Below are positions 318 to 25,811 of a DNA stretch of 35,109 bases, piece after piece. Source of the stretch: an uncultured Dehalococcoidaceae bacterium (lineage in GTDB: Bacteria; Chloroflexota; Dehalococcoidia; Dehalococcoidales; RBG-16-60-22). The stretch's first letter is position 1. The number at the start of each line of letters is the position of its first letter. Location of the stretch: assembly GCA_964652725.1 (NCBI GenBank), contig CAZZAU010000001.1, forward strand, positions 1-35,109. The letters run 5' to 3'. The notes under the pieces are model-generated. The model saw nothing but the letters and a program-made list of their open reading frames with translations. It had not been told where the DNA came from and searched no databases. The translations under genes and the position numbers were made by a program.

Positions 318-429
318 AGCGGAGCAGCGTCGGGTAAATTAAGGAAAGGCAGCAACTGGCGCTGAAAAAGGCGGAGTGATATGCTATCCTTGGTAGCGGG
401 TAGTGCTGCGCACTGCTTGTGAAGAGAAT

Positions 430-3044: not shown

Positions 3045-3060
3045 GCAACGGAGGTTTATA

Positions 3061-4252: not shown

Positions 4253-5095
4253 GTGATTCAAACCAGGGATGCCGAGCAGGCCGATGGCTATTCGCTGAGC
4301 ATCGTCATTCCGGTCAAAGACGAAGCAGACCACATCGGAGACCTGATATCGAGAATCAAGGCCAGCATGAACGGGCATCCCTATGAGATAATAGTGGTCG
4401 ATGACGGGTCGAGGGATGGAACGGAGGAGGTTCTGGCTAAATACGGGGCTCTGGTCATTTCCCATCCAGAGAATCTGGGCAAAGGCGCAGCCATGAAGTC
4501 CGGGGCGGCCAGGGCCACGGGCGATATAGTGGTCTTTATGGATGGTGATGGCGCTCACGAACCACAGGATATTGCCCGGCTCATCGAGCCTATTCTGGAA
4601 CGGAAGGCGGATTTGGTGATCGGCTCCCGGGCATTGCCGGACTCAAGGGTGGTGGTCTCTCCGGGGGGGAGGAGGCTGTGCAACGCGCTGGCCTCCTTCA
4701 TTATTTCTGCGCTAATTTCCCTTCCCCTGCTGAGCTCCGCAGCATTAAAAGGCGTGGTCCGCTATGGCAACAACAATCATAACGGACACCATTCCGCCAA
4801 TTCGAACCACAACGGCAAACGCAAATGGATAGGTATCACTGACTGCACAAGCGGCCTCCGGGCCATAAACAGGGAAAGCTGGCACAAGCTGGGGCTCGTT
4901 TCTCAGGGTTTCCAGATCGAGGCTGAAATGATATATGAAGCGGCCAGGCACCGGCTTAGCATAGCCGAGGTACCCATCAGTTGCAACTGGGACAGCCGTT
5001 TCTCCCATCTTTCCGTGGTCAGAGATGGCCTGAAGACCGCCAATCTGCTCGCCAGGAAGCTGCTGAGAACGAACGGGGCAAAGCCGGCGAGTTAG
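4253..5095 (+). CDS. GT2 glycosyltransferase, DPM1/polyprenyl-phosphate glycosyltransferase-like, with a His/Asn-rich insertion
   Basis: SIVIPVKDEADHI, YEIIVVDDGSRDGT, NLGKGAAMKSG, VVFMDGDGAHEP, DCTSGLRAI and EVPISCNW follow the DPM1-like GT2 layout. GTG start follows AGGAGG. Confidence 0.8.
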   Translation: MIQTRDAEQADGYSLSIVIPVKDEADHIGDLISRIKASMNGHPYEIIVVDDGSRDGTEEVLAKYGALVISHPENLGKGAAMKSGAARATGDIVVFMDGDGAHEPQDIARLIEPILERKADLVIGSRALPDSRVVVSPGGRRLCNALASFIISALISLPLLSSAALKGVVRYGNNNHNGHHSANSNHNGKRKWIGITDCTSGLRAINRESWHKLGLVSQGFQIEAEMIYEAARHRLSIAEVPISCNWDSRFSHLSVVRDGLKTANLLARKLLRTNGAKPAS

Positions 5096-5169
5096 TCAGG
5101 CGCGGGTGCCTTTCCTGCCCCGGATATGGTAAAGTAATTTCTGTCCGCGGTTTACGTGTTTGCTTGTCT

Positions 5170-9023: not shown

Positions 9024-9041
9024 CCTAGCGTTAATAATGGA

Positions 9042-10836: not shown

Positions 10837-12012
10837 ATGATGAAGAGACCACCAACCATTGCCGTAGTCACCTTCCCTCTGTATAACCAGGTCCCCCTGT
10901 GCTCTCTGGTGCTGATTTTGCGGGAGCTGGCACGGGAGCTGACTGTGATTACGGGCGATTTCCCGCCGGACGGGGTAGGACAGAATGTGCGCGTGGTCAA
11001 CATCAGTTATGAATCGAAGAATCGGTCACTGCCAGGGCGTATACTGGGATACCTGCTCATCCAGCTTAAAATATCGTACCGTCTGCTGACTGATGGGAGG
11101 AAGGCGGACATCGTTTTCTTCTTTGTTGGCGGCGCCATGCTTACCTTTCCCGTCCTTGCCGCCAGACTGATGAACAAGAGGACGGTCCAGCTTGTGGCCG
11201 GCTCCGGCTCTATGAGCGCCAGGGACACCTACCGGAAATATCTGTTCGGTGGTGGCGGTGCCGTTTTCGGCCCCATTCTGGGGGCCGCGGAAAGGCTCAG
11301 CTTTGCTCTCTGCGATAAGATTGTTACGTACACAGGGAGCACAGTGCAGGCTTTGGGACTGGACAGATACCGTCACAAGCTCGTCACCAACGGAGCCCGC
11401 TTCGTGGATACGGACTCGTTCCGGGTGCTCAAAAGACCGGACGAACGGAAAAACATAATCGGCTATGTCGGTCGTTTTAGCCCTGAAAAAGGCATTCTGG
11501 ACCTGGTCAGGGCTATTCCTGTGGTGCTGGCCGGAACGGACAACGCCGAGTTCGTTATCCGGGGAGACGGCCCGTTGCGCGAGCAAATAGAGGCAGGGCT
11601 GGCAGGCTGTCCGGGCAGGGAGCGGGTGACCGTTGCCGGCTGGATTCCCAACAGAGAGATGCCACAGGCCCTCAACCGGCTCAAGTTGCTGGTTTTGCCC
11701 TCGCATACGGAGGGCCTGCCGGGAATCATCATGGAGGCGATGGCCTGCGGGACGCCGGTCCTGGCTACACCGGTTGGCGGCGTACCCGACCTGATAACCC
11801 ATGGTGAAACGGGCTTCTTTCTCGCAGACAGCTCCCCGGAGACAATTGCCCGGGGCATCCTGGAGGCGCTGCAGCACCCGGCATTGCCGGCTATCGTCAG
11901 CAATGCCCGTAGTCTGATTGAGAAAGAATATACGTTTGCCGCGGCCGTAAAACGTTATACTGAAATCCTGGCCCGGCCACAGGAATCCTGCCCTGAAGGT
12001 GCTTCACTATGA
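10837..12012 (+). CDS. GT4-family glycosyltransferase (paralog of 9042-10205)
   Basis: YVGRFSPEKGI, VIRGDGPL, VLPSHTEGLPGIIMEAMACGTPVLATPVGGVPDLITHGETGFFL. ATG at 10837 chosen; the ORF opens with TTG at 10822. Confidence 0.85.
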   Translation: MMKRPPTIAVVTFPLYNQVPLCSLVLILRELARELTVITGDFPPDGVGQNVRVVNISYESKNRSLPGRILGYLLIQLKISYRLLTDGRKADIVFFFVGGAMLTFPVLAARLMNKRTVQLVAGSGSMSARDTYRKYLFGGGGAVFGPILGAAERLSFALCDKIVTYTGSTVQALGLDRYRHKLVTNGARFVDTDSFRVLKRPDERKNIIGYVGRFSPEKGILDLVRAIPVVLAGTDNAEFVIRGDGPLREQIEAGLAGCPGRERVTVAGWIPNREMPQALNRLKLLVLPSHTEGLPGIIMEAMACGTPVLATPVGGVPDLITHGETGFFLADSSPETIARGILEALQHPALPAIVSNARSLIEKEYTFAAAVKRYTEILARPQESCPEGASL

Positions 12013-13367
12013 AAGCTCTGAGCAAGCATATTTTTACCCCGCTGCTGGAAAGACGAGTGCACGGAAGCACCTTCAAGCGGCTGAAAGAACTGGAGCATAC
12101 GCAGTGGTGGCCGCGGGAAAAGCTCGTTGCGCTGCAAAACGTACGGCTCGTCGGGCTGATAAGCGCTGCTTACCAGAACACTGCGTATTACCGGAAAGCG
12201 CTGGCCGAGCGCGGACTCGTGCCGCAGAACATCAGCACGATGGACGACCTCGCGAAGCTGCCCGTGCTGACCAGGGCGGCGGTGAGAGACAACTTCCATG
12301 CCCTCATAGCGGAAAACCTGAAGCCAGGCCGGATGAAGCTGGGAGAGACGGGCGGCACCACCGGCGAGCCGCTGAGATTCATGAAACCCGGGGACGAGGG
12401 GTGGGGCTGGGGCGCCTACTACCGCGGTCTGGAGTGGTACGGGTTGAGCAGCGGAGACAAACATTCCCTTATCTGGGGTTACTCTCCCGCCGCCTCCAGA
12501 GTCGCCTCATTCCTGGCCGGGACAGGGCATTTCCTGAGAAATTGCGCTTTCCTTAATGCCTTTGACCTGTCCGAAGCCAGAATGGCGGCGTTTGCCTCGA
12601 AACTGAAGAAGTTCCAGCCCAAGGCCATAGCGGGATACTCGTCCGCAGTATATATCTTTGCCGAGTACGTAAAACAGAGCCAGATTCAGGGTATCAGGCC
12701 GGGACTGGCGATTACCACTGCCGAGAAGCTGTACGATTACCAGAGACAGGCAATAAAGGAAGCATTTGAGTGCGACGTATTTCAGTACTACGGCTCGCGA
12801 GAAGTCGCCTCTCTGGGCTATGAATGCCCGCAGCATCACGGCTATCACACTTCTATGGAGAACGTGGTGCTGGAAACAGTCGATGAGCGCGGCAATCGGG
12901 TAAAGCCCGGAGAGGTGGGAAGGGTGCTGGTGACCGACCTCCACAACTATGCCATGCCGCTGATTCGCTACGAGTTGGGGGACCTGGGGATTCTATCAGA
13001 TGAAGCATGCCCGTGCGGACGAGGGCTATCAGTCATCGCATCAATCGAAGGGAGAATGACGGACGTCATCGTTTGTTCCCGGGGATTCATATCACCGGTG
13101 GCGCTTACTACCTATGTTTTCAAAGACATGCCTGTCAGGCAATTTCAAGTAGTTCAGGAAACGCTCGATGACGTCCGGGTGAAGGTGGTGCCCGGCGAGG
13201 GGTTCGGCAGGGAAGAAACCGGGCGTATCAAAGAAGCCCTGCAGGCCCGCATGGGTATGGGGACGCATGTCGGCGTGGAGCTTGTTGATGATATCCCGCC
13301 ATCACCATCGTCAGGGAAGCGGCGGGTGGTGATATCAAAGGTGCCTTCTCAGCACAACGGGCTTTAG
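12009..13367 (+). CDS. PaaK/CapK-like adenylate-forming enzyme (phenylacetate-CoA ligase / F390 synthetase family)
   Basis: GETGGTTGEPLRF (AMP-binding P-loop analogue of SSGTTGKP), YYGSREV, and the length and layout of CapK-like capsule proteins. Start overlaps the previous stop (ATGA at 12009-12012). Confidence 0.7.
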   Translation: MKALSKHIFTPLLERRVHGSTFKRLKELEHTQWWPREKLVALQNVRLVGLISAAYQNTAYYRKALAERGLVPQNISTMDDLAKLPVLTRAAVRDNFHALIAENLKPGRMKLGETGGTTGEPLRFMKPGDEGWGWGAYYRGLEWYGLSSGDKHSLIWGYSPAASRVASFLAGTGHFLRNCAFLNAFDLSEARMAAFASKLKKFQPKAIAGYSSAVYIFAEYVKQSQIQGIRPGLAITTAEKLYDYQRQAIKEAFECDVFQYYGSREVASLGYECPQHHGYHTSMENVVLETVDERGNRVKPGEVGRVLVTDLHNYAMPLIRYELGDLGILSDEACPCGRGLSVIASIEGRMTDVIVCSRGFISPVALTTYVFKDMPVRQFQVVQETLDDVRVKVVPGEGFGREETGRIKEALQARMGMGTHVGVELVDDIPPSPSSGKRRVVISKVPSQHNGL

Positions 13368-13374
13368 AGTTCTG

Positions 13375-14481
13375 ATGAGAATCGTCTTTCTGTCGCACTG
13401 GTTTCTGCCGAACAAGATAGGCGGCAGCGAGCTGGCGCTCTACCGCTTCGCCCGGGAGATGGCGGAGCGGGGGCATGAATGTCACGTTATCACCCGGCTC
13501 GATAGCATAGACCGCCCCGCCTTTGAAATCATGGAAGGAATCCACGTGCACCGCCTGAAGAAACCAGGTGCCCGGATTATCGGCCCCTTTCTGTACGGAC
13601 TAAAAGCGGCGCGCCTGGTGCGGCGGCTGGTGCCGGACGTCGTCCACGAGCAGGCCATACAGGGGCTGGGACCCATAGTAAAGCGGTTCTGCCAGGCTCC
13701 GTACATCTTGTTTCCCAGGAGCACCGGGTTCTGCGCCCCGGCAAACGTCTATGCCAGGCTTGTAGCCAGGACCACGTTGAGACACGCCGACGTCCTTCTT
13801 GGCCAGAGCGGAAGCATCGCCATGGAAATGCGGCGGCTTTGCGGGAAAGAGGTTTCAGTGATACCGAACGGGGTGGAGCCGGAGAGATTTGCGGGCATTT
13901 CGAAGCCAGCTGCCAGAAAGAAGCTGGGGATAGCCGATGGTGAGAAAGTACTGCTATGCGTGGCCAACCTGCACCGCATAAAGGGACATTGCTATCTCCT
14001 CCAGGCGATGGAGACGGTAGCGGAAAGCGTCCCCGGCGTTCGCCTGTTCCTGGTGGGCAGAGACCATAACGATGGCAGCATACCCGCTACGGCATTGGAG
14101 AGGCTCAAGCAGCACATCGTCCTGACTGGCCAGGTGCCGCCGGAAGAAATTCCCGTCTATATGGCGGCAGCGGATATCTTTGTGCTGCCGAGCCTGAGCG
14201 AAGGAGTGCCCAACGTGCTGCTGGAGGCGATGGCAGCGGGCCTGCCGGTGGTGGCTACCGACGTGGGAGGAGTGCCGGAGCTGATTGCCGACGGCGAGAA
14301 CGGGTTGCTGGTGAAGCCGGGAAACAGTGAACAGCTGGCGGCAAAGCTCCTCGCTCTGCTGAAGGACGATGCCCTCCGGGAGAGAATGGCGCTACGCAAC
14401 CGGCGAGAAGCCAAAAAGTACGCCTGGCCTGCCATCATCGACTCTCTGGAGAAGGTCTATCTGGAGACAGGTAGGCGATGA
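13375..14481 (+). CDS. GT4-family glycosyltransferase
   Basis: MRIVFLSHWFLPNKIGGSE N-terminus. FVLPSLSEGVPNVLLEAMAAGLPVVATDVGGVPELIADGENGLLV. Confidence 0.85.
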   Translation: MRIVFLSHWFLPNKIGGSELALYRFAREMAERGHECHVITRLDSIDRPAFEIMEGIHVHRLKKPGARIIGPFLYGLKAARLVRRLVPDVVHEQAIQGLGPIVKRFCQAPYILFPRSTGFCAPANVYARLVARTTLRHADVLLGQSGSIAMEMRRLCGKEVSVIPNGVEPERFAGISKPAARKKLGIADGEKVLLCVANLHRIKGHCYLLQAMETVAESVPGVRLFLVGRDHNDGSIPATALERLKQHIVLTGQVPPEEIPVYMAAADIFVLPSLSEGVPNVLLEAMAAGLPVVATDVGGVPELIADGENGLLVKPGNSEQLAAKLLALLKDDALRERMALRNRREAKKYAWPAIIDSLEKVYLETGRR

Positions 14482-16294
14482 CGGCGCCGCTATCGTACAG
14501 GCGGGAAAGCCCCTGCTCGCTAAGCAACTGCAGCAGGTCATAGTCCAGCTTCAGAAATCCCCGCCCGCCCGGAAACACGTGGTTCAGGTTATAGTCCCGT
14601 ATCACCAGCAGACCGCCGGCATTTTCGAAATCCTTTTCAATCAGATATCCAATGGATGATTCCCTGGGCAGACCGTCATCGAAGAGATGATTGTAAGGGA
14701 TTTCCACCATAATCCGGCCCCGGTACAGTGATGAGATGGTCCGGGAGGCGGTAACCTCGGAATGGGTAAAGGCAGTCCGGTAGGTGGTACTCTGAACATA
14801 GACGGGACTATCACGGTTGGCATGCGGGCCGGCCACCTGCAGAAATGTCAGAGCACCGGTGATAACCAGGAGCGCGGCGTACTTCCAGACGCCGCCGCGG
14901 AGCGAGTTGACCAGAAGGATAACTCCCACCGCCACCAGACTTCCGAGCAGAATCTGGGAGTAGGCGAGGAAGCGGTCCGGCAAAAGGTCTCCCAGCCGAA
15001 AAGCCCCGCCGGCGAAAGCTACGGCGGTGGCGACAATCCCCGCCGAGGCAAAGCAGAAACGGTACGGGCTTCTCACACCGCGGGAGAGTAAGGCAAGAAT
15101 GCCGATTATGGCGAGGAAGTAGTACAGCAGCAGACCGCTGCGGCTGAGCACCAGTTCCCCGTAGCTGACCGCTCTTGTCAGGTACTGGCTGGTTATCAGC
15201 AGCGCCGATTGCTGCTCCATCTGAAAAGCGTACTTGATGCTCCAGACGATGTGCCTGAACTGGCCGGAGATGTACGCCCAGTAAGCCAGCGGGACGACCG
15301 CAGAGAAAATGACCAGGTAGGCGTTGACCAGAGGTCTTCCGGCGTGAAACAACCATCCGTAGGTCTTCTGTCCCCCCCACGAGGCCAGGAAGATAAGGCA
15401 GATGGCAAATGAGGCCAGGGCATGGGTCATCACGGTGAGCGCCACCAGGGAGAAGGTCAGGGCGGTGAACCTGGCGTCTCGCTTTCCGGAAAAGACCAGA
15501 TAGGTCAGCAAGATGACCAGAGCGATGCCCAGGGTATTGGGTATGGCCCAAAGGCCGTTGTGGATGTACCATCCCGCCGTGCCCACCATCAGCGCGGACA
15601 AAAGACCGACTCGGAAGTCGAACAGGCGCTCGCCGATAACGAAAACGAAAGCCACTATCGCCAGGTAGAAGGTGCCGATGTACAGTATTCCGGCGAACTT
15701 GTAGCTCAGGCCGGTCAGAAGGGAAGCGGTGCCTATGCCGAAAGGCATGACCGGCATATCGGCGTACACGTAGGTGGGCGCAATACGGCCGGTGGCGAGC
15801 ATCTGCATTACCGCCTCGGCGTGCCCCCAGACATCGATGCCGTTCAGGGAGGGAAACATTATCTGAGGCACCCATTGCAAAGCCATAGCCAGCAGCAGTA
15901 TCTTCGCCAGGCAAAAGCGAATATGTGCCCGGCTATCCGGAATGAGCACCGCCTCCAGGGCCAGAAGGGCGGCCAGAACGGCGACGGCAACGAAGTAGGC
16001 AGTGGGTCGAACATAAGACGCTGAGCGGGAGATGAGAAGCAACATACTGTAAGTGAAGATGGTGAAGAAAGCGATGTTGAACAGCAGATATGCCCGCCGA
16101 CCAAGGCGAAAACCGGCAGGCGCCGTTGTGAAGGGGCTCCTGCGGGCAACGGCCAGGTAGGTTACGCACGCCAGCGCCAGCGCTATACCAAACTCGCCGT
16201 ACTTTGCCTGCCACAGTACCAGCAACAGAACGGCACCCAGCGCCAGCCCGGCCAGCGCGCTTACCCTGTCCAGGTTGTCAAACAGTCTGCTCAC
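14435..16294 (-). CDS. large polytopic membrane protein, GT-C-like candidate, with C-terminal soluble domain
   Basis: 619-aa ORF with a GTG start preceded by GGAGA. The first ~500 aa are almost entirely hydrophobic helices; the last ~120 aa are soluble. Loop motif GIDVWGH is shared with the 19741-21204 protein. No family assignment possible without a search. Confidence 0.6.
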   Translation of the reverse strand: MSRLFDNLDRVSALAGLALGAVLLLVLWQAKYGEFGIALALACVTYLAVARRSPFTTAPAGFRLGRRAYLLFNIAFFTIFTYSMLLLISRSASYVRPTAYFVAVAVLAALLALEAVLIPDSRAHIRFCLAKILLLAMALQWVPQIMFPSLNGIDVWGHAEAVMQMLATGRIAPTYVYADMPVMPFGIGTASLLTGLSYKFAGILYIGTFYLAIVAFVFVIGERLFDFRVGLLSALMVGTAGWYIHNGLWAIPNTLGIALVILLTYLVFSGKRDARFTALTFSLVALTVMTHALASFAICLIFLASWGGQKTYGWLFHAGRPLVNAYLVIFSAVVPLAYWAYISGQFRHIVWSIKYAFQMEQQSALLITSQYLTRAVSYGELVLSRSGLLLYYFLAIIGILALLSRGVRSPYRFCFASAGIVATAVAFAGGAFRLGDLLPDRFLAYSQILLGSLVAVGVILLVNSLRGGVWKYAALLVITGALTFLQVAGPHANRDSPVYVQSTTYRTAFTHSEVTASRTISSLYRGRIMVEIPYNHLFDDGLPRESSIGYLIEKDFENAGGLLVIRDYNLNHVFPGGRGFLKLDYDLLQLLSEQGLSRLYDSGAVIAYLSPDRPSPESR

Positions 16295-16328
16295 GGGCGG
16301 TCTCCGGATGACGTCGGGTGAAAGTGCA

Positions 16329-17330
16329 TCACCGCATTTCCTTCCCGCCGGCGCGCCTGCTCCCGGACAGGAGCGACTTCAAAGCATGGTGCGCCCCGGT
16401 CAGGCCGTCGTTGGCCCTACTGCCCAGGAAAGACATCAGATATGACAGCATGTTCCTTACGTCATGGGGGGCCAGGGCTATTGCCCGGACATACTCTCTC
16501 CGGGCGGCAGTGAAATCGCCACGGCTCAGGCAGGCTCTCGCTACCGAGCGGTGAAGGTAGTGACGCGCCTTCCTGTCCAGGTGCGCATATAAGGCCTCTA
16601 TCCCCTGCTCCTCTATTTGCTCGAGCAGGCGGGCCGATGCCCTTCCGCTGGCTATACGCAGGGCGAGAAGATGGTAGAGAGCGCCTTCCCGCCTCTTTTG
16701 CGCCTGGACACTCTCCCGGTGTCTTCGTTTCCAGTACAGCGGTTCGGTCAGATTGGCCACCGTGTAGCGGCCGGCAATTCTGAGCCACAGCTCGTAGTCC
16801 TGCGAGTAGCGAAAGAGCTCATGGTACGGGCCCACCTGGTCCAGAACGCTCTTGCGCAACATCACCGAGCCGTGAACGAATTGATTGTGCATCCTGAGCT
16901 TGCGTTCGGGGTACGGTGAGGGCGTCTCCCGGCGCAGGACCCGCCCATCCTCGTCGATGATGCAGACTCCCGTACCCAGCAGCCCTACCTCGGGGTGCCG
17001 TTCCAGATAGGTGACTTGTTTGGCAAAGCGGGCGGGGAGAGAGACATCGTCCGCGTCCTGCCTGGCGATGTAGTGGCCGGAGGCCAGGCCGAGGGCGACG
17101 TTGAGCGAGCGGGTGAGGCCAATGTTGCGCCCGTTGCTGACGGACCTTATTCTGGGGTCGGCGTAGCTCCTGATAATGGCTGAGGAACCGTCTGTGGAGC
17201 CGTCATCGACGATGATGAATTCGAAGTCGCCGAAGGTCTGCCCGAGCACGCTTTCCATCGCCCGGCCGAGATAGCGTTCCCCATTGTGGACCGCCATAAT
17301 GACGCTGATTCCCGGCCGGTCTTGTGTCAT
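16329..17330 (-). CDS. GT2 glycosyltransferase with C-terminal TPR-like tail
   Basis: ISVIMAVHNGERYLGRAMESVLGQTF, FEFIIVDDGSTDGS, ARQDADDVS. The C-terminal region RACLSRGDFTAARREYVRAIALAPHD resembles a TPR. Confidence 0.8.
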   Translation of the reverse strand: MTQDRPGISVIMAVHNGERYLGRAMESVLGQTFGDFEFIIVDDGSTDGSSAIIRSYADPRIRSVSNGRNIGLTRSLNVALGLASGHYIARQDADDVSLPARFAKQVTYLERHPEVGLLGTGVCIIDEDGRVLRRETPSPYPERKLRMHNQFVHGSVMLRKSVLDQVGPYHELFRYSQDYELWLRIAGRYTVANLTEPLYWKRRHRESVQAQKRREGALYHLLALRIASGRASARLLEQIEEQGIEALYAHLDRKARHYLHRSVARACLSRGDFTAARREYVRAIALAPHDVRNMLSYLMSFLGSRANDGLTGAHHALKSLLSGSRRAGGKEMR

Positions 17331-17334
17331 AGCG

Positions 17335-18192
17335 CTAGCCCTTCCGTGCCACGTAAAGCATCATATGTCCGGCCAGCCGGCGCAGGACTGCGGACTCCAC
17401 CAGAGCGCCAAACAGGCGGCCCGGCCCGCTAATGGCAGGACGTCCGGCCGGTGGAGCAGCCGTTTCCGTCGCTTTTCCGACCGGTGCACTCCCGGAGATG
17501 AAACGAGACAGGCCCAGGAAGAGGGGCAATTCGTCCTTGAGTCCCTTCCTAGCATTATAGGGATTGAGACTGATGACCGTAAAGCCGGATGCCCGCAGCA
17601 GATGCTTGAACTCGCGCACCGTGAACGCATACTGATAGAACCCGGGGCGCCGGTTTCCGCGGTAGAGGCCGAGACCTCCCTTCAGCCGGCGCAGCCAGTT
17701 GTAATAGGGCACGGTAGCCAGAAGCACGCCCCCCTTTTTCAGGACGCGGCTGGCTTCCGTCAGCGCCTTTTCGGGGCCGTCCTCGAAGTGCTCGACCACC
17801 CCAAGGGACGGGATAGCGTCGAAATGGCCGTCCGGACAGGGCAACTCCAGCACGTTGCCCACCTTAACCGGCAAGTCAGGGATGGCTTCCCTGACCTGTC
17901 TGACCACCTCCCGGCTTATATCGATTCCCTCGACGTCATACCCCTTCTCTCTGAGAATGGCCACGTACTGTCCCAGTCCGCACCCGGCTTCCAGGATTTT
18001 ACCGGACGGAGGCAGATGACCCAGCAGGACCGGAAGCAGGCGCCGGTCGCTGCGGGCCCACTCGACCCACCGGGCGACATCAAGGTCCTGCCAGTGTCGC
18101 CCCCAGTGGTCTGCATCGGCCGGCCGGCCGTAGACCGCCAGGCGCTGCCCGGTTTTTGTCCAGCGACTCAAGAGGCACCCCCCGGGCGGCAC
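17335..18192 (-). CDS. class I SAM-dependent methyltransferase
   Basis: ILEAGCGLGQY, DVEGIDIS, FDAIPSLGVVEHFEDG, LKKGGVLLATVP. The only start at the ORF's 5' end is GTG at 18192. Confidence 0.7.
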   Translation of the reverse strand: MPPGGCLLSRWTKTGQRLAVYGRPADADHWGRHWQDLDVARWVEWARSDRRLLPVLLGHLPPSGKILEAGCGLGQYVAILREKGYDVEGIDISREVVRQVREAIPDLPVKVGNVLELPCPDGHFDAIPSLGVVEHFEDGPEKALTEASRVLKKGGVLLATVPYYNWLRRLKGGLGLYRGNRRPGFYQYAFTVREFKHLLRASGFTVISLNPYNARKGLKDELPLFLGLSRFISGSAPVGKATETAAPPAGRPAISGPGRLFGALVESAVLRRLAGHMMLYVARKG

Positions 18193-18302
18193 GCGGGCAG
18201 CAGAGAGATGAACAGTTCTTCTTTTCTCATTGCGCAGCCGCCAACCGGGAAGGATATCATTCCAGCTCTCCCGTCATCCCTGTTCCGCGTAGAGAAACCA
18301 TG

Positions 18303-19574
18303 CTACAGGCTGCGGTAACAGAACCCAGCCTTTTCCGCCTCCCCTCTGTCGAAGAAGCGCCGCACGTCCACCAGCACCGGCGGGTGTCTTTGCAGCGCCC
18401 TGAGGTCGTCAAGGCTGAACCGGCGGAATGCGGTATGTCCCACGGCCAGTATGATGGCGTCCACCCTGTCCATTCTCAGTGTTTCCATGTCAGCACGGTC
18501 GATTAGCTCTATGCGGAACTGCCCCTCCAGCTCCGGGATGGGCACCAGAGGTTCATAGCCCAGGACGTGTATGCGGTATTCCTCCAGCTTCTTTATGATG
18601 CCGCCCACCGGGCTTTCCCTGGTATCGGCAACATCTTCCTTATAAGTCAGACCGAGAACAAGCACCCGTGAACCCTTGATTACTTTGCCCACCTCGTTCA
18701 ATGCTTTTATGGTCAGCTCGGCGACGTACTCTGGCATGAAGTCGTTTATCGCCCTTCCCGCCAGTATAACCCGCGAATGGTAGCCCAGCTCCCGGGCACG
18801 GTACACCAGGTAATGCGGGTCTACGGGGATGCAGTGTCCCCCCACCAGCCCCGGAGAGTACCGGTGGAAGTTCCACTTGGTGGCCGCGGCCTCCAGCACC
18901 GCCGCGCTGTCCAGCCCCAGCTTGTGGAAGATAATGGTCAGCTCATTGACCAGGGCAATGTTCAGGTCCCGCTGGATATTCTCGATTACCTTGGCCGCCT
19001 CGGCGGTCTTAAGATTGGGCGCTACGTGTATGTGGGGTGTCACCTTGCGGTACAGCTCCGCCACGGCAATAGTGGTTTCCCGGTCCATACCGGCCACTAC
19101 CTTGGTAATCCTGTCCACCGTGTGTTCTGTATCGCCGGGGTTGATTCTTTCCGGGGAATAGGCTACCTTGAAATCAGGCCCCGCTCTGAAACCTGATGCT
19201 TCTTCCAGAATGGGCTGAAGCACTTCTTCCGTGACTCCCGGATATACGGTGGATTCCAGGATTACCATTGCTCCCTTGCCCATATTGCGCCCGATAGTCC
19301 GGGCAGCGTCACGCAGGTGTGAAAGGTCCGGCTCGGAGGAGGTGGTAAGCGGGGTAGGGACGCAGATGATAATGAAACCGGCCTCTTTCATAAGTGAAGG
19401 GTCACCGGTGAAGATGATGGAGTGCTGCGCGGAGTTCCGGAGCCGTTCCAGCTTCCTTGTGTCCGTATCATAACCGATGACCGGCAGGTACGCAGCGAAT
19501 GCTTCCGCGAGTGGCAACCCCACATAACCCATGCCCACCACGCAGACGGTGGTACCTGTTGATTCTGGTTTCAT
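18303..19574 (-). CDS. nucleotide-sugar dehydrogenase (UDP-glucose/GDP-mannose dehydrogenase family)
   Basis: N-terminal Rossmann VCVVGMGYVGLPLAEAF. Catalytic-Cys region VGGHCIPVDP. C-terminal UDP-binding-like domain VLGLTYKEDVADTRESP. Confidence 0.88.
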   Translation of the reverse strand: MKPESTGTTVCVVGMGYVGLPLAEAFAAYLPVIGYDTDTRKLERLRNSAQHSIIFTGDPSLMKEAGFIIICVPTPLTTSSEPDLSHLRDAARTIGRNMGKGAMVILESTVYPGVTEEVLQPILEEASGFRAGPDFKVAYSPERINPGDTEHTVDRITKVVAGMDRETTIAVAELYRKVTPHIHVAPNLKTAEAAKVIENIQRDLNIALVNELTIIFHKLGLDSAAVLEAAATKWNFHRYSPGLVGGHCIPVDPHYLVYRARELGYHSRVILAGRAINDFMPEYVAELTIKALNEVGKVIKGSRVLVLGLTYKEDVADTRESPVGGIIKKLEEYRIHVLGYEPLVPIPELEGQFRIELIDRADMETLRMDRVDAIILAVGHTAFRRFSLDDLRALQRHPPVLVDVRRFFDRGEAEKAGFCYRSL

Positions 19575-19624
19575 TTGTGACCTCGAAATTAAGTAGCTGC
19601 TCTTCTATCTGTGACAGTTGTCCA

Positions 19625-19653
19625 ATTATAGCGCAGATGCCCCTGGCTCTCAA
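19625..19653 (-). promoter_or_regulatory. sigma70-like promoter of the minus-strand operon (dehydrogenase to membrane protein)
   Basis: Minus strand: TTGAGA (19648-19653), 17 nt, TATAAT (19625-19630). About 50 nt upstream of the ATG at 19574, which is preceded by GAGGT. Confidence 0.55.
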
Positions 19654-19673
19654 GGGCTTCCGCAGCGGCCTGG

Positions 19674-19702
19674 TTGAGGCCATGGTTGCCGGAAGGTATA
19701 AT
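19674..19702 (+). promoter_or_regulatory. sigma70-like promoter of the 19741 operon, back to back with the previous one
   Basis: TTGAGG (19674-19679), 17 nt, TATAAT (19697-19702). About 39 nt upstream of the GTG at 19741. Confidence 0.55.
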
Positions 19703-19740
19703 AATGGGCAAATGAAGGATTACGGAAGCGGCGGAAAGAG

Positions 19741-21204
19741 GTGAATCTGCACCGGTATGAGAAACTGGCACCCCTGGCCCTGGTTCCGGTGCTGGCCCTG
19801 GCCTACTATGTGGCGTACATTCCGCACCTCACCTACCCCTATCCCGTGCACATAGACGAGTGGGTGCATCTGGCCTTCTCCAGGGCGATGCTCGAGGCGG
19901 GCAGCACTTCCTTCACCGACCCCTTTCTGGGCCAGTCCGCCGTTGGAGCGGGGAGTCCCCACCTTGAGGCCGGCTTTCACCTGTTCTGGGGGGTGTTCCA
20001 GCGTGTCAGCGGACTTTCCTGGATGGCTATCTACCGTTACTTTCCGGGTATTATCTTCGTACTGACGGTGGCCTCGGTGTACGTGCTGGGGCGGCGGAAA
20101 GGCTTCGGGTGGGAAGCCGCCTTTTTCACCGCTTTGATACCCACCACCGTGGGGATTCTAGGCCCCGGCTTCCTGGTGCCCCTGGCTACAGGTCTGTTCT
20201 TCACCCCCCTCGCTCTTTTCCTGGCTTTTTACCTGAGAAGCCCCCTGGCCTGGATAACCCTCTTCATCTTTATGAGCCTGCTGCTGGTAATGCACGCGCC
20301 TTCGGCGGTCTTCATCGCCCTGATTATTGGTCCATACGCGTTGCTGAATCTGAAAGGAGATTTCAGGCGCGCCCTGGGCCTCGGCCTGGCGCTGCTGGTC
20401 CCTTTTCTGCTACCTTTCCCCTGGATTTTCGATCTGCTGCTCCCCACGGCAAAGAGCGTCCTCGTCCCGCACCCTCTTACTCCCTACGTGGACTTTCCGC
20501 GGGTGCTCCGGGAGTACGGTTACCTGCCGGCAACGTTCTGCCTGGTGGGAACCGCCGTTTTGTTCCTGAAGGGTGGCAGGGAGAATACCGCGCTGGTGCT
20601 GGGTCTGCTGGGGGTGCTGCTGGTGCTGGTGGCGCGCTACACCTTCAACTACGGCATACACATTCTCTACGCTCGCGGGCTTATGTTCATGATGATGATG
20701 GTGGCAGTGGTGGGCGGGGCCGGTCTGGCGACATTCCGGAAACTCGATGCGCCGTTTCTTTCATCCTTCAGAGAAGGAAAACCCGTTCTGGCCAGGGCCA
20801 CCGGTGTGCTGTTGTTACTGGCTGTTTCGGCAGCGACGCTGGCCGTTGCGCTGCCGCAGCGCCTGAACACGCCCTACTATCATATGATCGACCACCAGGA
20901 GTATCAGGACTTCGTCTGGATGCGTGATAACCTGGGCGGCTCCTACCGGAAGGCCATACTGGACCCCTGGAAGGCAACCGCATTCACCGCCATCACCGGC
21001 AAGTTCGCCTATACCAGGATTCACATGGCGCCTACGCCCGTAGACCAGAAAGCCTACGCTTTCCTCGACAGCGGCTGCGAAGATACCGGGTTCCTGAGGC
21101 AGAACGGCATCTCCATCATATACAATCGCTCCGGGTGCCGGAATCCCGACCTTGTGGAGGTGAAGGAGAACATCTACCTCCTGAAGGAAGAAGGCCCGGA
21201 GTGA
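19741..21204 (+). CDS. polytopic membrane protein, GT-C-like candidate (paralog of 14435-16294)
   Basis: 487-aa ORF with a GTG start after AAGAGG. Many hydrophobic helices and a soluble C-terminal ~110 aa. An acidic/His motif HIDEWVH follows the first helix. Confidence 0.6.
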   Translation: MNLHRYEKLAPLALVPVLALAYYVAYIPHLTYPYPVHIDEWVHLAFSRAMLEAGSTSFTDPFLGQSAVGAGSPHLEAGFHLFWGVFQRVSGLSWMAIYRYFPGIIFVLTVASVYVLGRRKGFGWEAAFFTALIPTTVGILGPGFLVPLATGLFFTPLALFLAFYLRSPLAWITLFIFMSLLLVMHAPSAVFIALIIGPYALLNLKGDFRRALGLGLALLVPFLLPFPWIFDLLLPTAKSVLVPHPLTPYVDFPRVLREYGYLPATFCLVGTAVLFLKGGRENTALVLGLLGVLLVLVARYTFNYGIHILYARGLMFMMMMVAVVGGAGLATFRKLDAPFLSSFREGKPVLARATGVLLLLAVSAATLAVALPQRLNTPYYHMIDHQEYQDFVWMRDNLGGSYRKAILDPWKATAFTAITGKFAYTRIHMAPTPVDQKAYAFLDSGCEDTGFLRQNGISIIYNRSGCRNPDLVEVKENIYLLKEEGPE

Positions 21205-21226
21205 ACTGAGCAAACGTGCTTCTTTG

Positions 21227-21235
21227 TGGTATAAT
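21227..21235 (+). promoter_or_regulatory. extended -10 element (TGgTATAAT) upstream of the GtrB-like GT2
   Basis: TGGTATAAT read at 21227-21235 in the 71-bp gap. The -35 is poor (TGAGCA at 17 nt). Confidence 0.4.
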
Positions 21236-21275
21236 TCGGGCACGCAAGTCTGCCCAGGGAAAAGCAGGACGGGAG

Positions 21276-22190
21276 ATGAACAAACAACACGAAACGGGAC
21301 AAAAAGTCCTGGTGGCAATGCCCGCCTACAACGAGGAGAAATATATCGGCAGCCTGGTAGTGCAGGCCCGGCAGTATACGGACGAGGTGCTGGTGGTGGA
21401 TGACGGCAGCACAGACCGTACTGCCCGCGTTGCCGAGCTGGCGGGCGCCACCGTCATCAGACACGGCAAGAACCGGGGCTATGGGGCCAGCATCCAGAGC
21501 ATACTGACCGAGGCCAGAAAAAGGGCTCCGGACGTGCTGGTGCTGATGGACGCCGACGGCCAGCATGACCCCGGACAGATAAGCGCGCTCATCGGGGCGA
21601 TACGCAGCGGCAATGACCTGGCCGTGGGCTACCGCGTCATCGGCCGCGGGGAGATTCCGGCGCACCGGCGAATCGGGCAGAAGGTGCTGACCTTCTTCAG
21701 CGGTGTGCTCTCCAGGAGCGGTCTGTCCGATACCGAGTGCGGCTTCCGCGCTTTCTCGGGCAAGGCCCTGGGGGTGCTTCAGCCAGAGGAAAAGGGCATG
21801 GCAGTGTCCGCAGAAACCATCTCCGAGGCGGCAAGGAAGGGACTCAAAATTACGCAGGTGCCCGTCTCCGCCATCTACACCGGTGATGGTTCCACCTTCA
21901 ATCCCGTCAGACACGGCGTAGACGTGCTAAACCGTGTGCTGGTGATGATTTCCGAGCGGAGGCCACTGCTCTTTTTCGGGGTCGTGGGAGCCGTGCTCAT
22001 CGCTCTGGGGCTGGCAGCCGGGGTAGTGGTGGTGCGGTTGCTGTTTGCCTCAGAGGTCCTGCATGTGGGCACCGCCCTGCTGTCCATGATGCTCATCACC
22101 ATCGGTGTGTTGAGCATCTTCGCCGGGATAATACTGAATGTGCTGGTGAAGCGCATAAAAGAAGCAGGCCTGGCCGATACCCCGGACTGA
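21276..22190 (+). CDS. GT2 polyprenyl-phosphate glycosyltransferase, GtrB/CsbB/ArnC-like, with two C-terminal TM helices
   Basis: VLVAMPAYNEEKYIG, EVLVVDDGSTDRT, GKNRGYGASIQ, VLMDADGQHDP, DTECGFRAF. Two C-terminal helices follow: LLFFGVVGAVLIALGLAAGVVVV and LLSMMLITIGVLSIFAGIILNVL. ATG at 21276 chosen; the ORF opens at 21216. Confidence 0.8.
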   Translation: MNKQHETGQKVLVAMPAYNEEKYIGSLVVQARQYTDEVLVVDDGSTDRTARVAELAGATVIRHGKNRGYGASIQSILTEARKRAPDVLVLMDADGQHDPGQISALIGAIRSGNDLAVGYRVIGRGEIPAHRRIGQKVLTFFSGVLSRSGLSDTECGFRAFSGKALGVLQPEEKGMAVSAETISEAARKGLKITQVPVSAIYTGDGSTFNPVRHGVDVLNRVLVMISERRPLLFFGVVGAVLIALGLAAGVVVVRLLFASEVLHVGTALLSMMLITIGVLSIFAGIILNVLVKRIKEAGLADTPD

Positions 22191-22208: not shown

Positions 22209-23051
22209 TCACTCCACCCGCACCTGGAGAAAGAGCTGCCGGTATGCAGCGGTCTGTCCCTGCTTGGAAAGGACAAACTCGACCTTCTGACTGCCGGAGC
22301 GCTCCGGGGTAAAGCTTATCTCCTGCCGCCATTCTTCGCCGTGTCCCAGATTGATAGGCCCGGCCTGCCACCGGGCTTCTCCCTCCAGCTTCATTTCCAC
22401 CCGGTACTGCTCTGTCCGCCTTTCATGATTGATGATGACCAGTACCAAGTCAGCCGTATCGCCGGTATCAAGGGCGAGAGGGTAGTCTATCATGGCCCCG
22501 CCCGGTCCCAGCAGGTAGAACTCGGTGAACCGCTCGGACGTTTTGGGGGTAACCACATAATAGACCAGGCTGGCCGCGGCGGCCAGCAGTACCAGTGCTA
22601 GGAGTCCGGTCAGGACGCGGTCCGTTAGGCCATACCGTTGCCAGAAGGTCAGATGTGGGGTGAAGGCTGGGCAGTATCTCTCCGTTTCCTGAAGTCGCCC
22701 CCGCCGGTACCAGGCTACGGCTGCTCCCGCGGTTACCAGCAGCGCCATCGCCGTTGCCAGGGGCAGCAAACTGAGGCCCCACGGGGAAAAATTGAGCGCC
22801 AGGCCGGCCAGGGCTGTTGCCACGACACTCAGCACCGGGACCATCCCTGCGCGTTCGATGCTGGTGAGAGACGTTCTCCCGGGGAAGATGGCCAGAGTGA
22901 TCAAATAGCCCGGATAGAGCAGTACCAGGGGCAATCCCAGGGCGGTTCTCAGGACGCCGGAGGGAACCACGGCGATGAGAAGCAGTGAGATGAGCGCCGC
23001 GATGCCTGCCAGCAAAATGTCCGCATTGGCTTTGAGTCCGGTGAGTCGCAT
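22209..23051 (-). CDS. DUF1616-like membrane protein (4 TM helices plus C-terminal beta-rich domain)
   Basis: This is the C-terminal 280 codons of the 837-aa ORF, starting at the ATG at 23049-23051. DILLAGIAALISLLL...GLPLVLLYPGYLITLAIFPGR...SIERAGM...LALNFSPWGLSL matches my memory of the DUF1616 N-terminal pattern. After a fourth helix comes a soluble domain, TEFYLLGPGG...LVLVIINHERRTEQYRVEMKL. Confidence 0.6.
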   Translation of the reverse strand: MRLTGLKANADILLAGIAALISLLLIAVVPSGVLRTALGLPLVLLYPGYLITLAIFPGRTSLTSIERAGMVPVLSVVATALAGLALNFSPWGLSLLPLATAMALLVTAGAAVAWYRRGRLQETERYCPAFTPHLTFWQRYGLTDRVLTGLLALVLLAAAASLVYYVVTPKTSERFTEFYLLGPGGAMIDYPLALDTGDTADLVLVIINHERRTEQYRVEMKLEGEARWQAGPINLGHGEEWRQEISFTPERSGSQKVEFVLSKQGQTAAYRQLFLQVRVE

Positions 23052-23065
23052 CACGAATACTACTG

Positions 23066-23094
23066 AGTATAGCACAGACGAGGGCACTTGCCGA
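23066..23094 (-). promoter_or_regulatory. weak candidate promoter for the DUF1616-like gene
   Basis: Minus strand: TCGGCA (23089-23094), 17 nt, TATACT (23066-23071). The leader would be very short. Confidence 0.3.
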
Positions 23095-23115
23095 AGTCGG
23101 GTAGAGTCCGGGGCA

Positions 23116-23144
23116 TTGCGAAAAAGCCGTCTCACCTCTATAAT
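23116..23144 (+). promoter_or_regulatory. sigma70-like promoter of the long right-hand operon
   Basis: TTGCGA (23116-23121), 17 nt, TATAAT (23139-23144). It lies only about 22 nt upstream of the ATG at 23166. Confidence 0.55.
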
Positions 23145-23165
23145 TAAGCAAACCGGTATGCGACG

Positions 23166-24110
23166 ATGAAATATTTTGTGACCGGGGGCGCGGGCTTCAT
23201 CGGGAGCCACCTGGTAGATAGTCTGGCGGAGCGGGGTCAAGTGACCGTCTACGACAATCTGAGCTCCGGCAGACGGGAGCACCTGAAGCATCATCTGCGC
23301 AGCGAAGGGTTCCGGTTTGTGGAGGCCGACCTTCTGGAGACGGTGCTCCTGCGACGCGCGATGAGAGGGAGCGAGGTGGTCTTCCATATGGCGGCTAATC
23401 CGGAAGTGAAAGACGCTGCCGGCAACACGGAGCTGGACTTGAAGCAGGGCGCCATCGCTACCTACAATGTACTCGAAGCGATGCGACTTAACGGTGCCCG
23501 GGAAATCATCTTCGCCTCCAGCAGCACCGTATACGGAGACACGGGAGGGCAGGTCGTTGCCGAGGATTTCGGGCCGCTTCAACCCATATCTCTGTACGGA
23601 GCCAGCAAGCTGGCCGCAGAAGGTCTGATAACCGCTTTCTGCCACCTTTTTAATATGAAGGCCTGGGTTTTCCGCTTCGCCAACGTGGTGGGGAGCAGGG
23701 CGACCCACGGGGTGCTCTTCGATTTCATACGTAAGCTGAGACGGGACCCGGAGCGACTGGAAGTGCTGGGCGACGGCCGTCAGGAAAAGCCATATATCCA
23801 CGTAAAGGACTGCGTGGCCGGTATGCTGCATGGCTTCAAGCACGGGCGGGGGGACGTCAATGTCTATAATCTGGGCAACGCTGACGCGGTCAGCGTTACG
23901 GCTATTGCCCGTATGGTTGCGGCGCAAATGAAGCTGCCGGAGGTCGTACTGAGCTATACAGGAGGTGAGCGCGGCTGGCCCGGCGATGTACCCCGGGTGA
24001 GGCTGGACGTTTCCCGGATGGAAGGGCTGGGCTGGCAGCCGGAACGCAGCTCGGCGGAAGCAGTGCGCGCGGCGATAGCGGAACTCCTGGCAGAAACGGG
24101 GCAGAGGTAA
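23166..24110 (+). CDS. NAD-dependent nucleotide-sugar epimerase/dehydratase (extended SDR)
   Basis: KYFVTGGAGFIGSHLV (GxxGxxG) and catalytic YGASKLAAE (YxxxK). Confidence 0.85.
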   Translation: MKYFVTGGAGFIGSHLVDSLAERGQVTVYDNLSSGRREHLKHHLRSEGFRFVEADLLETVLLRRAMRGSEVVFHMAANPEVKDAAGNTELDLKQGAIATYNVLEAMRLNGAREIIFASSSTVYGDTGGQVVAEDFGPLQPISLYGASKLAAEGLITAFCHLFNMKAWVFRFANVVGSRATHGVLFDFIRKLRRDPERLEVLGDGRQEKPYIHVKDCVAGMLHGFKHGRGDVNVYNLGNADAVSVTAIARMVAAQMKLPEVVLSYTGGERGWPGDVPRVRLDVSRMEGLGWQPERSSAEAVRAAIAELLAETGQR

Positions 24111-25795: not shown

Positions 25796-25811
25796 CGCGG
25801 GAGGTGCGCTG

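Follow-up and report, generated by a model that had tools for sequence, protein, structure and literature searches.

Two homologous polytopic membrane proteins from a surface-glycan region of an uncultured Dehalococcoidaceae bacterium, predicted to be GT-C fold glycosyltransferases

What are the two large, unnamed membrane proteins encoded in a 35,109-nucleotide stretch (the window) of contig CAZZAU010000001.1 from an uncultured Dehalococcoidaceae bacterium, are they related, and what might they do in the surface-glycan region where they lie? An earlier note on this DNA had described the two proteins, here called A and B, as paralogs with collinear motifs that resemble GT-C glycosyltransferases. 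The coordinates, strands and lengths it gave for both open reading frames (ORFs) are exact. The two genes and the parts of their products on which the argument depends are the following.

14435..16294, minus strand: protein A, 619 aa, GTG start; predicted GT-C fold glycosyltransferase with 15 transmembrane helices and an extracytoplasmic C-terminal domain
15932..16294, minus strand: N-terminal extension of A, aa 1-121, with four transmembrane helices (8-28, 33-50, 66-88, 98-117), absent from B
16004-16015, minus strand: Y94-x-R96-P97 motif in the N-terminal extension of A, family-conserved
15821..15841, minus strand: motif G-I-D-V-W-G-H of A (G152-H158), opening the first helix in the long outer loop; D154 is the proposed catalytic aspartate
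15701..15718, minus strand: site 2 of A, LTGLSY, aa 193-198, outer-loop end and start of the next transmembrane helix; set against VSGLSW of B in both the BLASTP and the hhalign alignment
15626..15646, minus strand: site 3 of A, VFVIGER, aa 217-223, cytoplasmic end of the same transmembrane helix as site 2; set against VYVLGRR of B in both the BLASTP and the hhalign alignment
15422..15427, minus strand: T290-H291 of A, outer tip of a helical hairpin; H291 pairs with H185 of B
14972..14974, minus strand: R441 of A, outer start of transmembrane helix 14; pairs with R312 of B; proposed donor-phosphate binder
14438..14833, minus strand: soluble alpha/beta domain at the C-terminus of A (aa 488-619), predicted to be extracytoplasmic; D495 and E513 are conserved
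19741..21204, plus strand: protein B, 487 aa, GTG start; predicted GT-C fold glycosyltransferase with 11 transmembrane helices and an extracytoplasmic C-terminal domain
19849..19869, plus strand: motif H-I-D-E-W-V-H of B (H37-H43), opening the first helix in outer loop 1; D39, together with E40, is the proposed catalytic acid/base
20005..20022, plus strand: site 2 of B, VSGLSW (aa 89-94), opposite LTGLSY of A in the alignments
20077..20097, plus strand: site 3 of B, VYVLGRR, aa 113-119, cytoplasmic end of transmembrane helix 2, aligned with VFVIGER of A
20293..20295, plus strand: H185 of B, outer tip of the hairpin of transmembrane helices 5 and 6; the model helix breaks at residue 185
20674..20676, plus strand: R312 of B, outer start of transmembrane helix 10; pairs with R441 of A
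20866..21201, plus strand: C-terminal soluble alpha/beta domain of B, aa 376-487, from the secondary structure of the model
20962-20973, plus strand: D-P-W-K motif in the C-terminal domain of B, invariant

When the two proteins were compared directly with BLASTP, residues 128-301 of A aligned with residues 13-195 of B at 25% identity over 186 aa, with 35.0 bits and a pairwise expect value (E) of 6e-6. The alignment runs through IDxWxH, (T/S)GLS and V(I/L)G(E/R)R and then a fourth feature, M-T-H-A in A against V-M-H-A in B. All three collinear sites that the earlier note had aligned by eye lie inside it, and GIDVWGH and HIDEWVH do translate from the nucleotides it had assigned to them (15821-15841 and 19849-19869). 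Its spacings were about one residue off: the distance from site 1 to site 2 is 41 aa in A against 52 aa in B, and from site 2 to site 3 it is 24 aa in both. As a control, 900 shuffled versions of B were scored, some randomised over the whole sequence and others only inside windows of 10 or 20 residues, the latter retaining the pattern of transmembrane segments and hydrophobicity. None of them came up to 35 bits: the highest score was 31.6 and the mean 18, while the reversed sequence gave 18.9. Given that no shuffle attains the real score, the similarity is not an effect of composition.

Family alignments of 128 diverse sequences for A and 103 sequences for B form the basis of the conservation, topology and hhalign counts given below. 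Aligned against each other with hhalign, these deep profiles match over 316 columns, A123-464 against B8-335, with a probability of 97.25% and an E of 2.8e-11, and the profile hidden Markov model (HMM) of family A gives B-family members up to 46 bits. The first, shallow profiles (9 against 30 sequences) had yielded a probability of only 4.5%, and the comparison became persuasive only at 128 against 103. Residue 8 of B is set opposite residue 123 of A; the roughly 115 extra N-terminal residues that the earlier note had seen in A are indeed present, and form four helices.

Four residue pairs in these alignments are invariant or nearly so in both families, namely D154 with D39, H158 with H43, H291 with H185, and R441 with R312, the last from an hhalign match of 'DRFLAYSQ' opposite 'ARGLMFMM'. 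The motif residues are among the most conserved positions of both families. In the A family, D154, Y177, G398 and R441 are invariant (128/128), and the motif has the consensus G-x-D-P-W-x-H, with W156 in 95/128 (F in 13) and H158 in 121/128. H291 is kept in 127/128. At site 2, T194 is found in 88/128, L196 in 94/128 and Y198 in 113/128, and position 222, in site 3, is basic (R or K) in 90/128. The N-terminal extension retains D9 (122/128), Y94 (122/128), R96 (126/128) and P97 (126/128), and the C-terminal domain D495 (119/128) and E513 (126/128). In the B family, H37 and D39 are invariant (103/103), followed by W41 (102/103), E40 and H43 (97/103 each). Site 2 presents S90 and G91 in 102/103 each and W94 in 103/103, site 3 presents R119 in 96/103, and H185 and R312 are found in all 103 sequences. 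The C-terminal motif of B is equally constant, with P409 and W410 in 103/103 and K411 in 102/103.

Hence, A and B are homologous, as members of two anciently diverged families, and the term 'paralogous' used in the earlier note applies in that sense only: the A family is large and extends into archaea, while the B family is almost confined to Dehalococcoidales. A word search returned only eight close relatives of A, one of which is named 'ArnT family glycosyltransferase' at NCBI, and a word-indexed search with the 128-sequence alignment gained nothing further. An exhaustive HMM search, with representatives defined as 50%-identity clusters, returned many more: 1966 representatives are found at E <=1e-3 and 812 at E <=1e-30, nearly all of about 620 aa and matching end to end, including the N-terminal extension. 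The taxa obtained from cluster look-ups are Chloroflexota, Methanoregula (one member) and one metagenome-assembled genome (MAG) labelled Methanosarcinales. For B, a word-indexed search yielded at least 811 relatives, the best 120 of which are 54-61% identical over the full length; no Pfam domain is found in any of them, and the few that are named are called hypothetical. In a pattern scan of species-representative genomes the B family is present in 95 species-level genomes, and the 80 listed are nearly all MAGs of Dehalococcoidales or Dehalococcoidia. Two MAGs hold two B-family copies each: loci L071 and L078 lie about 20 kb apart on a complete chromosome (OY970123.1), and L033 and L046 belong to a CAYWAU01 MAG.

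The C-terminal domains have similar alpha/beta secondary-structure patterns in the models of A and B. Both proteins do end in a soluble domain, as had been proposed, although its length is 132 aa in A and 112 aa in B rather than about 110-120 aa. No significant sequence similarity was found between the two domains (hhalign E 0.037), and their common origin is therefore unproven.

AlphaFold models were built on deep alignments and searched with Foldseek against the PDB. The model of A has a predicted local distance difference test score (pLDDT) of 93.8 and a predicted template-modelling score (pTM) of 0.94, and that of B a pLDDT of 84.8 and a pTM of 0.85. The top 25 matches of A and the top 31 matches of B are all GT-C enzymes at probability 1.0, and at E <1e-3 only GT-C enzymes are found with either model. 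The first matches of B are human and yeast STT3, archaeal AglB, and PglB, with E from 3e-8 to 4e-6 and a query TM-score of about 0.6 (the best at E 2.8e-8 and 0.62), followed by AftA in fifth place, AftD, DPY19, ArnT, ALG3 and PimE. The best match of A is AftA (E 1.9e-6), then STT3 (2e-6), ArnT, PglB, AglB, ALG9, DPY19 and Pmt4. We consider A and B very probably GT-C fold glycosyltransferases, which would be placed in the GT-C_A class of the GT-C superfamily of integral-membrane glycosyltransferases.

Topology was derived from positive-inside charge counts across both family alignments, with the helices taken from the models. B crosses the membrane eleven times and A fifteen times, with the N-terminus inside and the C-terminus outside in both, the four extra helices of A leaving the orientation unchanged. 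All loops assigned to the inside are net positive (+0.85 to +3.3 in B, +0.25 to +2.25 in A), and those assigned to the outside are mostly neutral or negative, except for two short loops in the N-terminal extension of A (+0.62 and +0.80). The loop with the D-x-W-x-H motif (27-93 of B, 147-197 of A; two helices in either protein) is placed outside because its net charge is negative in both families (-3.4 in B, -2.4 in A). The C-terminal domain is also negative (-5.9 in B, -3.7 in A), and the hairpin tip with H291 of A has no charged residue and lies between positive inside loops. Four elements of both proteins thus face outward: the D-x-W-x-H loop, the C-terminal domain, the hairpin-tip histidine, and the arginine that lies where a late helix meets the outer surface. 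The earlier note had put the motif in the first outward loop, which is correct for B (outer loop 1), whereas in A it is in the third, because four extra helices precede it. The suggestion that both proteins are GT-C-like glycosyltransferases is supported by the GT-C-only structural matches taken together with this outward topology.

The genes lie in one long surface-glycan region, which fills the window. It contains seven glycosyltransferases of family 4 (GT4), five of family 2 (GT2), six methyltransferases, a B12-radical S-adenosylmethionine (SAM) enzyme, a uridine diphosphate (UDP)-sugar dehydrogenase, an epimerase, HddC-, HddA- and GmhA-like heptose genes, an aminotransferase, a deacetylase, and FemAB-like and PaaK/F390-like enzymes. 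Four neighbours bear directly on the function of A and B.

21216..22190, plus strand: GT2 with C-terminal transmembrane helices, 11 bp downstream of B; Pfam Glycos_transf_2; probable polyprenyl-phosphate sugar synthase
22209..23051, minus strand: DUF1616 membrane protein, 280 aa, Pfam DUF1616 at 1.9e-57; convergent with the B operon and about 1 kb from B
16329..17330, minus strand: soluble GT2, EpsE/TuaG-like, directly upstream of A
4253..5095, plus strand: second AglJ/PpgS-like GT2, NCBIfam AglJ at 6e-34 and PpgS at 2e-27

Each of the two genes stands beside a GT2 in a separate operon, as had been noted: A is the last gene of an operon composed of the UDP-sugar dehydrogenase, a methyltransferase, the EpsE-like GT2 and A itself, and B is followed by the GT2 at 21216-22190. 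The best NCBIfam matches of the latter are AglJ (1.6e-40), PpgS (7e-33), dolichyl-phosphate hexose transferase and ArnC, and with E. coli ArnC it presents 23% identity over 284 aa (E 9e-13), reaching into the transmembrane tail. This enzyme probably makes the donor for B; by analogy, the gene order corresponds to the classic arrangement of a donor synthase with its GT-C enzyme. The second such GT2, at 4253-5095, could possibly make another lipid-linked donor, its link to A being conjectural.

The homology of A and B, their GT-C fold, the outward motif, the conservation of the paired residues and the gene context were all computed here. From them we infer an enzymatic activity, a donor type, residue roles and an acceptor, and favour, as somewhat the likelier account, that A and B are outer-face transferases that use polyprenyl-phosphate sugars to decorate surface glycans. 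The donor would be a monosaccharide on polyprenyl monophosphate, which we consider probable for B and evenly balanced for A. Both proteins would span the cytoplasmic membrane, the N-terminus lying on the inner side and the D-x-W-x-H loop, like the alpha/beta domain at the C-terminus, on the outer side. A GT2 on the cytoplasmic face would make the polyprenyl-phosphate-linked sugar, which would then be flipped across the membrane, and A and B would move the sugar from the flipped donor onto a cell-surface glycan or glycoprotein. The loop aspartate (D39 in B, D154 in A) may act as catalytic base and position the acceptor; in ArnT, PMT, PglB and the Aft enzymes, a loop aspartate is established as the catalytic base. 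The paired histidine (H185/H291) and arginine (R312/R441) at the outer ends of transmembrane helices may hold the donor phosphate, and the divergent C-terminal domains may pick different acceptors. B would pair with the adjacent AglJ/PpgS/ArnC-like GT2 (21216-22190) and, in Dehalococcoidales, may be part of an archaeal-style lipid-linked system for protein or surface-layer (S-layer) glycosylation. A would act on the product of the neighbouring GT4, GT2 and methyltransferase cluster, together with a Wzx-type flippase. In Haloferax, the Wzx-like AglR serves the dolichyl-phosphate (Dol-P) mannose enzyme AglS.

In comparison with known pairs, B and its GT2 resemble ArnC/ArnT, GtrB/GtrC, PpgS/Rv3779 and AglD/AglS, and the Wzx coupling of A relatives resembles the Haloferax pair AglR/AglS. 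With the three-component systems as a whole (GtrA/GtrB/GtrC; CsbB/GtcA/YfhO; the GT136 system of Citrobacter (PMC11127046); PpgS/Rv3779; Haloferax AglD/AglR/AglS), the locus shares a synthase GT2 beside a GT-C enzyme, in the case of B, and genes embedded in a surface-glycan cluster. It differs from them in that the window has no flippase gene, the synthase is near B in only 18 of 78 related loci and is not of the synthase type for A, and the most constant partner of B, DUF1616, belongs to no described system of this kind.

ArnT and PMT_2 (PF13231; CAZy GT83 and GT39), with ArnC as donor synthase, share with A and B the GT-C_A fold (Foldseek ArnT E of 1.8e-5 for A and 3.3e-4 for B), an N-terminus on the inner side, an aspartate where the first helix of the outer loop begins, and an outer C-terminal domain of small size. 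The GT2 next to B is ArnC-like. Seen by eye, the helix in the loop of B (DEWVHLAFSRAMLEAG) is similar to that of E. coli ArnT (DETRYAEISREMLASG), both following the pattern D-E...S-R-x-M-L: B has D-E-W-V-H-L-A-F-S-R-A-M-L-E-A-G where ArnT has D-E-T-R-Y-A-E-I-S-R-E-M-L-A-S-G. This is a lead only. Weak Pfam PMT_2 matches were obtained in 11 of the 60 A-family representatives scanned (best E 2.5e-7, approximately residues 189-347 of A), and two inspected singly scored 23.8 and 16.6 bits, under the threshold of 26.1. In contrast, A and B themselves have no PMT or PMT_2 match (PF13231, PF02366), even at E <=10, and none of the 30 B-family members scanned matches any GT-C Pfam family. The A family also has D-P instead of D-E in the motif, A has four extra N-terminal helices, and no ArnE/F-type flippase genes are nearby. 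Despite the NCBI name of one homologue, an ArnT-family label was set aside for both proteins, since neither family profile matches E. coli ArnT.

Among the mycobacterial enzymes, AftA is the top structural match of A and the fifth of B, and Emb and AftD carry helices beyond the 13-helix GT-C core. Unlike with these enzymes (AftA, AftD and Emb), there is no detectable sequence similarity, no decaprenyl-phosphoarabinose pathway genes are found in the window, and the host phylum is another.

Several results weigh against the favoured account. Neither protein has a relevant match in Pfam or NCBIfam, even at E <=10, which agrees with the earlier statement that neither fits a named family, and the A- and B-family profiles match none of the PDB sequences. 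Compared with E. coli ArnT, hhalign gave E of 0.098 and 0.48 for the two profiles, over unrelated segments, and the B-family profile gave no significant alignment to Dehalococcoidia AglB (E 0.041), with the motif itself out of register. No Pfam flippase family (GtrA, SMR, MATE or Wzx) is present in any window ORF, and tblastn finds no Wzx. The donor type rests on weak context, because a polyprenyl-phosphate sugar synthase occurs near B in just about a quarter of related loci (18/78) and the GT2 next to A is, by NCBIfam, of the soluble EpsE-like type rather than the synthase type. The top structural matches are oligosaccharyltransferases, which use pyrophosphate-linked oligosaccharides, and the residue roles come from alignment rather than from three-dimensional superposition.

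In the main rival, which we consider unlikely, A, B or both would be like oligosaccharyltransferases or ligases: once Wzx has flipped a finished polyprenyl-pyrophosphate glycan, they would pass it en bloc, as STT3 does, to an acceptor such as a protein. The best structural matches are STT3, AglB and PglB (GT66; TM-score 0.62 for B), and the D-x-(W/Y)-x-H of the outer loop resembles the 'SIDAYYH' (D-A-Y-Y-H) of the AglB genes that adjoin B and are its neighbours in 10 loci. When the A-family profile was aligned with nine Dehalococcoidia AglB sequences, GIDVWGH fell opposite that motif, with D154 at its aspartate (E 7.5e-5, probability 62%). Relatives of A either follow Wzx directly or form a fusion with it, and their clusters lack any Wzy or WaaL-type gene. 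A strongly conserved outer-domain motif (SE in A, DPWK in B) lies about 25-33 residues past the last transmembrane helix, where STT3 has WWDYG. Against this, WWD or WWDYG is found in 0/128 A-family and 0/103 B-family sequences (0/231 in all), whereas all 9 neighbouring Dehalococcoidia AglB carry WWDYG. The outer domains have just 112-132 aa, compared with several hundred in STT3, and no STT3 or AglB_core Pfam profile matches A or B. The second acidic outer-loop motif (DxD/ExD, metal binding) is missing in B: the loop equivalent to external loop 2 (EL2) has no acidic residue in 103 sequences, so B lacks the three-carboxylate metal site of oligosaccharyltransferases. By count, the loop between transmembrane helices 3 and 4 of B has 0.00 aspartate plus glutamate per sequence, and that between helices 7 and 8 of A has 0.45. 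Finally, B has a probable monophosphate-sugar synthase as its partner, and it frequently adjoins a true AglB, so that a second oligosaccharyltransferase is less needed.

The neighbourhoods of A relatives also bear on a second rival, quite improbable in our estimation, in which A would be the polymerase of a Wzx-dependent pathway, joining flipped repeat units outside in place of the absent Wzy. A-family genes lie in GT4- and methyltransferase-rich glycan clusters of Chloroflexota and Methanoregula, and they encode the sole large unannotated polytopic proteins in clusters with Wzx, several GT4 and no Wzy or O-antigen-ligase gene. Wzx is directly upstream of the A homologue in one locus and two genes upstream in another (L085, 5149-6639, and the contig of homologue P0136). 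In a metagenomic protein of 1122 aa (P0137), a Wzx domain (Polysacc_synt, residues 34-231) is N-terminally fused to an A-family domain (494-1115). However, Wzy, WaaL and SEDS proteins have a different fold, and no WaaL, RodA, FtsW, Wzy or SEDS structure is in the top 50 Foldseek matches of either model, on which ground a Wzy/WaaL fold was rejected for A and B. Such a role has no precedent for this fold: no GT-C enzyme is known to polymerise pyrophosphate-linked repeat units. The window has neither Wzx nor a chain-length regulator.

Very unlikely is the third, that A and B are transporters, flippases or non-catalytic membrane scaffolds whose shared motifs are structural only. Neither protein matches a glycosyltransferase family by sequence, and A has weak Foldseek matches to BetP and other transporters, yet these have a probability of <=0.35 and a TM-score of about 0.1, as against 1.0 and 0.35-0.62 for the GT-C matches, and the invariant polar residues gather on the outer face, as in GT-C active sites; the transporter reading was rejected on both grounds. 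The two results that the earlier note had named as counting against its proposal, a confident structural placement among transporters or another non-glycosyltransferase family and a motif on the cytoplasmic side, were thus looked for, and neither was obtained. That the resemblance between A and B is a by-product of hydrophobic membrane-protein composition without common descent is virtually out of the question, for although pairwise identity is only 25% and the shallow profiles gave little, the shuffles that keep local composition never equal the real score, the deep profiles align, independently invariant residues pair up, and both models match the same set of solved structures.

The partners of B in related genomes were also considered. 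ORFs at most 6 kb from B were clustered in 78 related loci, 38 of them with full flanks, and the DUF1616 count takes in both full-length and shorter forms.

DUF1616-type gene near B: 44/78 loci, 24/38 with full flanks, usually adjacent; the most frequent B-family neighbour
AglJ/PpgS-like GT2 near B: 18/78 loci
Geranylgeranyl-reductase family gene near B: 12/78 loci, TIGR02032, above cutoff
STT3/AglB with WWDYG near B: 10/78 loci

When window proteins were compared with the B loci by tblastn, no strictly conserved enzyme partner was found, and just 1 of the 80 loci contains A as well as B. The DUF1616-type genes near B (loci L005-L084) encode either a full-length protein of about 276 aa or a 119-aa four-helix N-terminal form, the latter of the size of GtrA- or SMR-type lipid-sugar flippases. 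The AglB proteins of the Dehalococcoidales MAGs are archaeal-type STT3/AglB of 778-922 aa, with WWDYG and the AglB core domain. Their genes (L002-L004, 5209-7977; L013, L020, L024, L028, L041, L055 and L057) are mostly immediately beside B, which starts 23 bp after AglB in one contig set. The geranylgeranyl-reductase gene encodes a flavoprotein, for instance at 8301-9482 (minus strand) of L025 and 8300-9577 (minus strand) of L021, with 201 bits against a cutoff of 159. Under stricter clustering it is found in 10 loci, adjacent to B in 8, and its presence hints at a partly saturated, dolichol-like lipid carrier.

These associations invite a more specific proposal, speculative and rather doubtful in our judgement: B and DUF1616 would be a conserved, hitherto undescribed two-gene module of archaeal-type protein glycosylation in Dehalococcoidales, with a dolichol-like (partly saturated polyprenol) carrier and including AglB. 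B would complete or branch the N-glycan in the manner of AglS, and the four-helix N-terminal part of DUF1616 would be the missing flippase or an obligate subunit. In a bolder version, B would be a second transferase that recognises an acceptor peptide, with DPWK in place of WWDYG. Members of the class Dehalococcoidia are known to have an S-layer and no peptidoglycan.

Other features of the region are as follows. The 3' ends of the A gene and of a convergent GT4 gene (13375-14481) share 47 bp (14435-14481), and L085 keeps this convergent overlap with 44 bp (9747-9790). A trio of DUF58, DUF4129 (about 8 hydrophobic segments) and MoxR AAA+ ATPase genes (403-4032, plus strand) flanks the glycan cluster, and a MoxR, DUF58 and transglutaminase set also flanks the A homologue P0136 on another contig. 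The ORF of the second AglJ/PpgS-like GT2 (4253-5095) overlaps a further GT2 ORF (4981-6135, plus strand) that is MftF/EpsD-like with three hydrophobic segments. The B12-binding radical SAM enzyme follows the pair (4253-7586 as a whole, plus strand), with the hopanoid-associated HpnJ as its best match (401 bits, under the cutoff of 578). The overlaps between these ORFs suggest that the true start codons are located further downstream. An 837-aa ORF at 22209-24722 (minus strand) is spurious save for its last 280 codons, which are DUF1616; the rest is antisense to epimerase and nucleotidyltransferase genes. Three successive genes at 24111-26387 (plus strand) encode an HddC-like heptose-1-phosphate guanosyltransferase, an HddA-like heptose-7-phosphate kinase and a GmhA isomerase, which suggests a guanosine diphosphate (GDP)-glycero-manno-heptose pathway; the trio recurs near B in L001. 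A PaaK/F390-synthetase-like adenylating enzyme (12009-13367, plus strand) and a FemAB-family protein (27578-28654, plus strand) lie amid the glycosyltransferases and suggest acyl or aminoacyl decoration of the glycan.

No paper on these families was found in the searchable literature, which was also searched for DUF1616 and for oligosaccharyltransferases of Dehalococcoidia. Both the fold and the way such a system works are already known, while the A and B families are uncharacterised and have no Pfam or NCBIfam model; the result is of use for annotation but does not represent a new kind of system. Two large 'hypothetical' families would gain a fold, a topology and a candidate active site (D, H, H, R), and in practice the only large unassigned membrane proteins of these glycan clusters would gain a correct label. 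Once activity is shown, A (at least 1966 clusters at 50% identity) and B (at least 811 relatives, at least 95 species-level genomes) would be candidate CAZy GT-C families, with a precedent in GT136, founded in 2024 (PMC11127046). For an enzyme of surface glycans, B is conserved to an unusual degree (55-60% identity), and its linkage to DUF1616 provides a first functional context for that family. The most interesting loose end is the linkage of B with DUF1616, AglB and the geranylgeranyl reductase, which points to archaeal-style lipid-linked glycosylation in uncultured Dehalococcoidales, whose class matters for organohalide respiration and subsurface carbon cycling.

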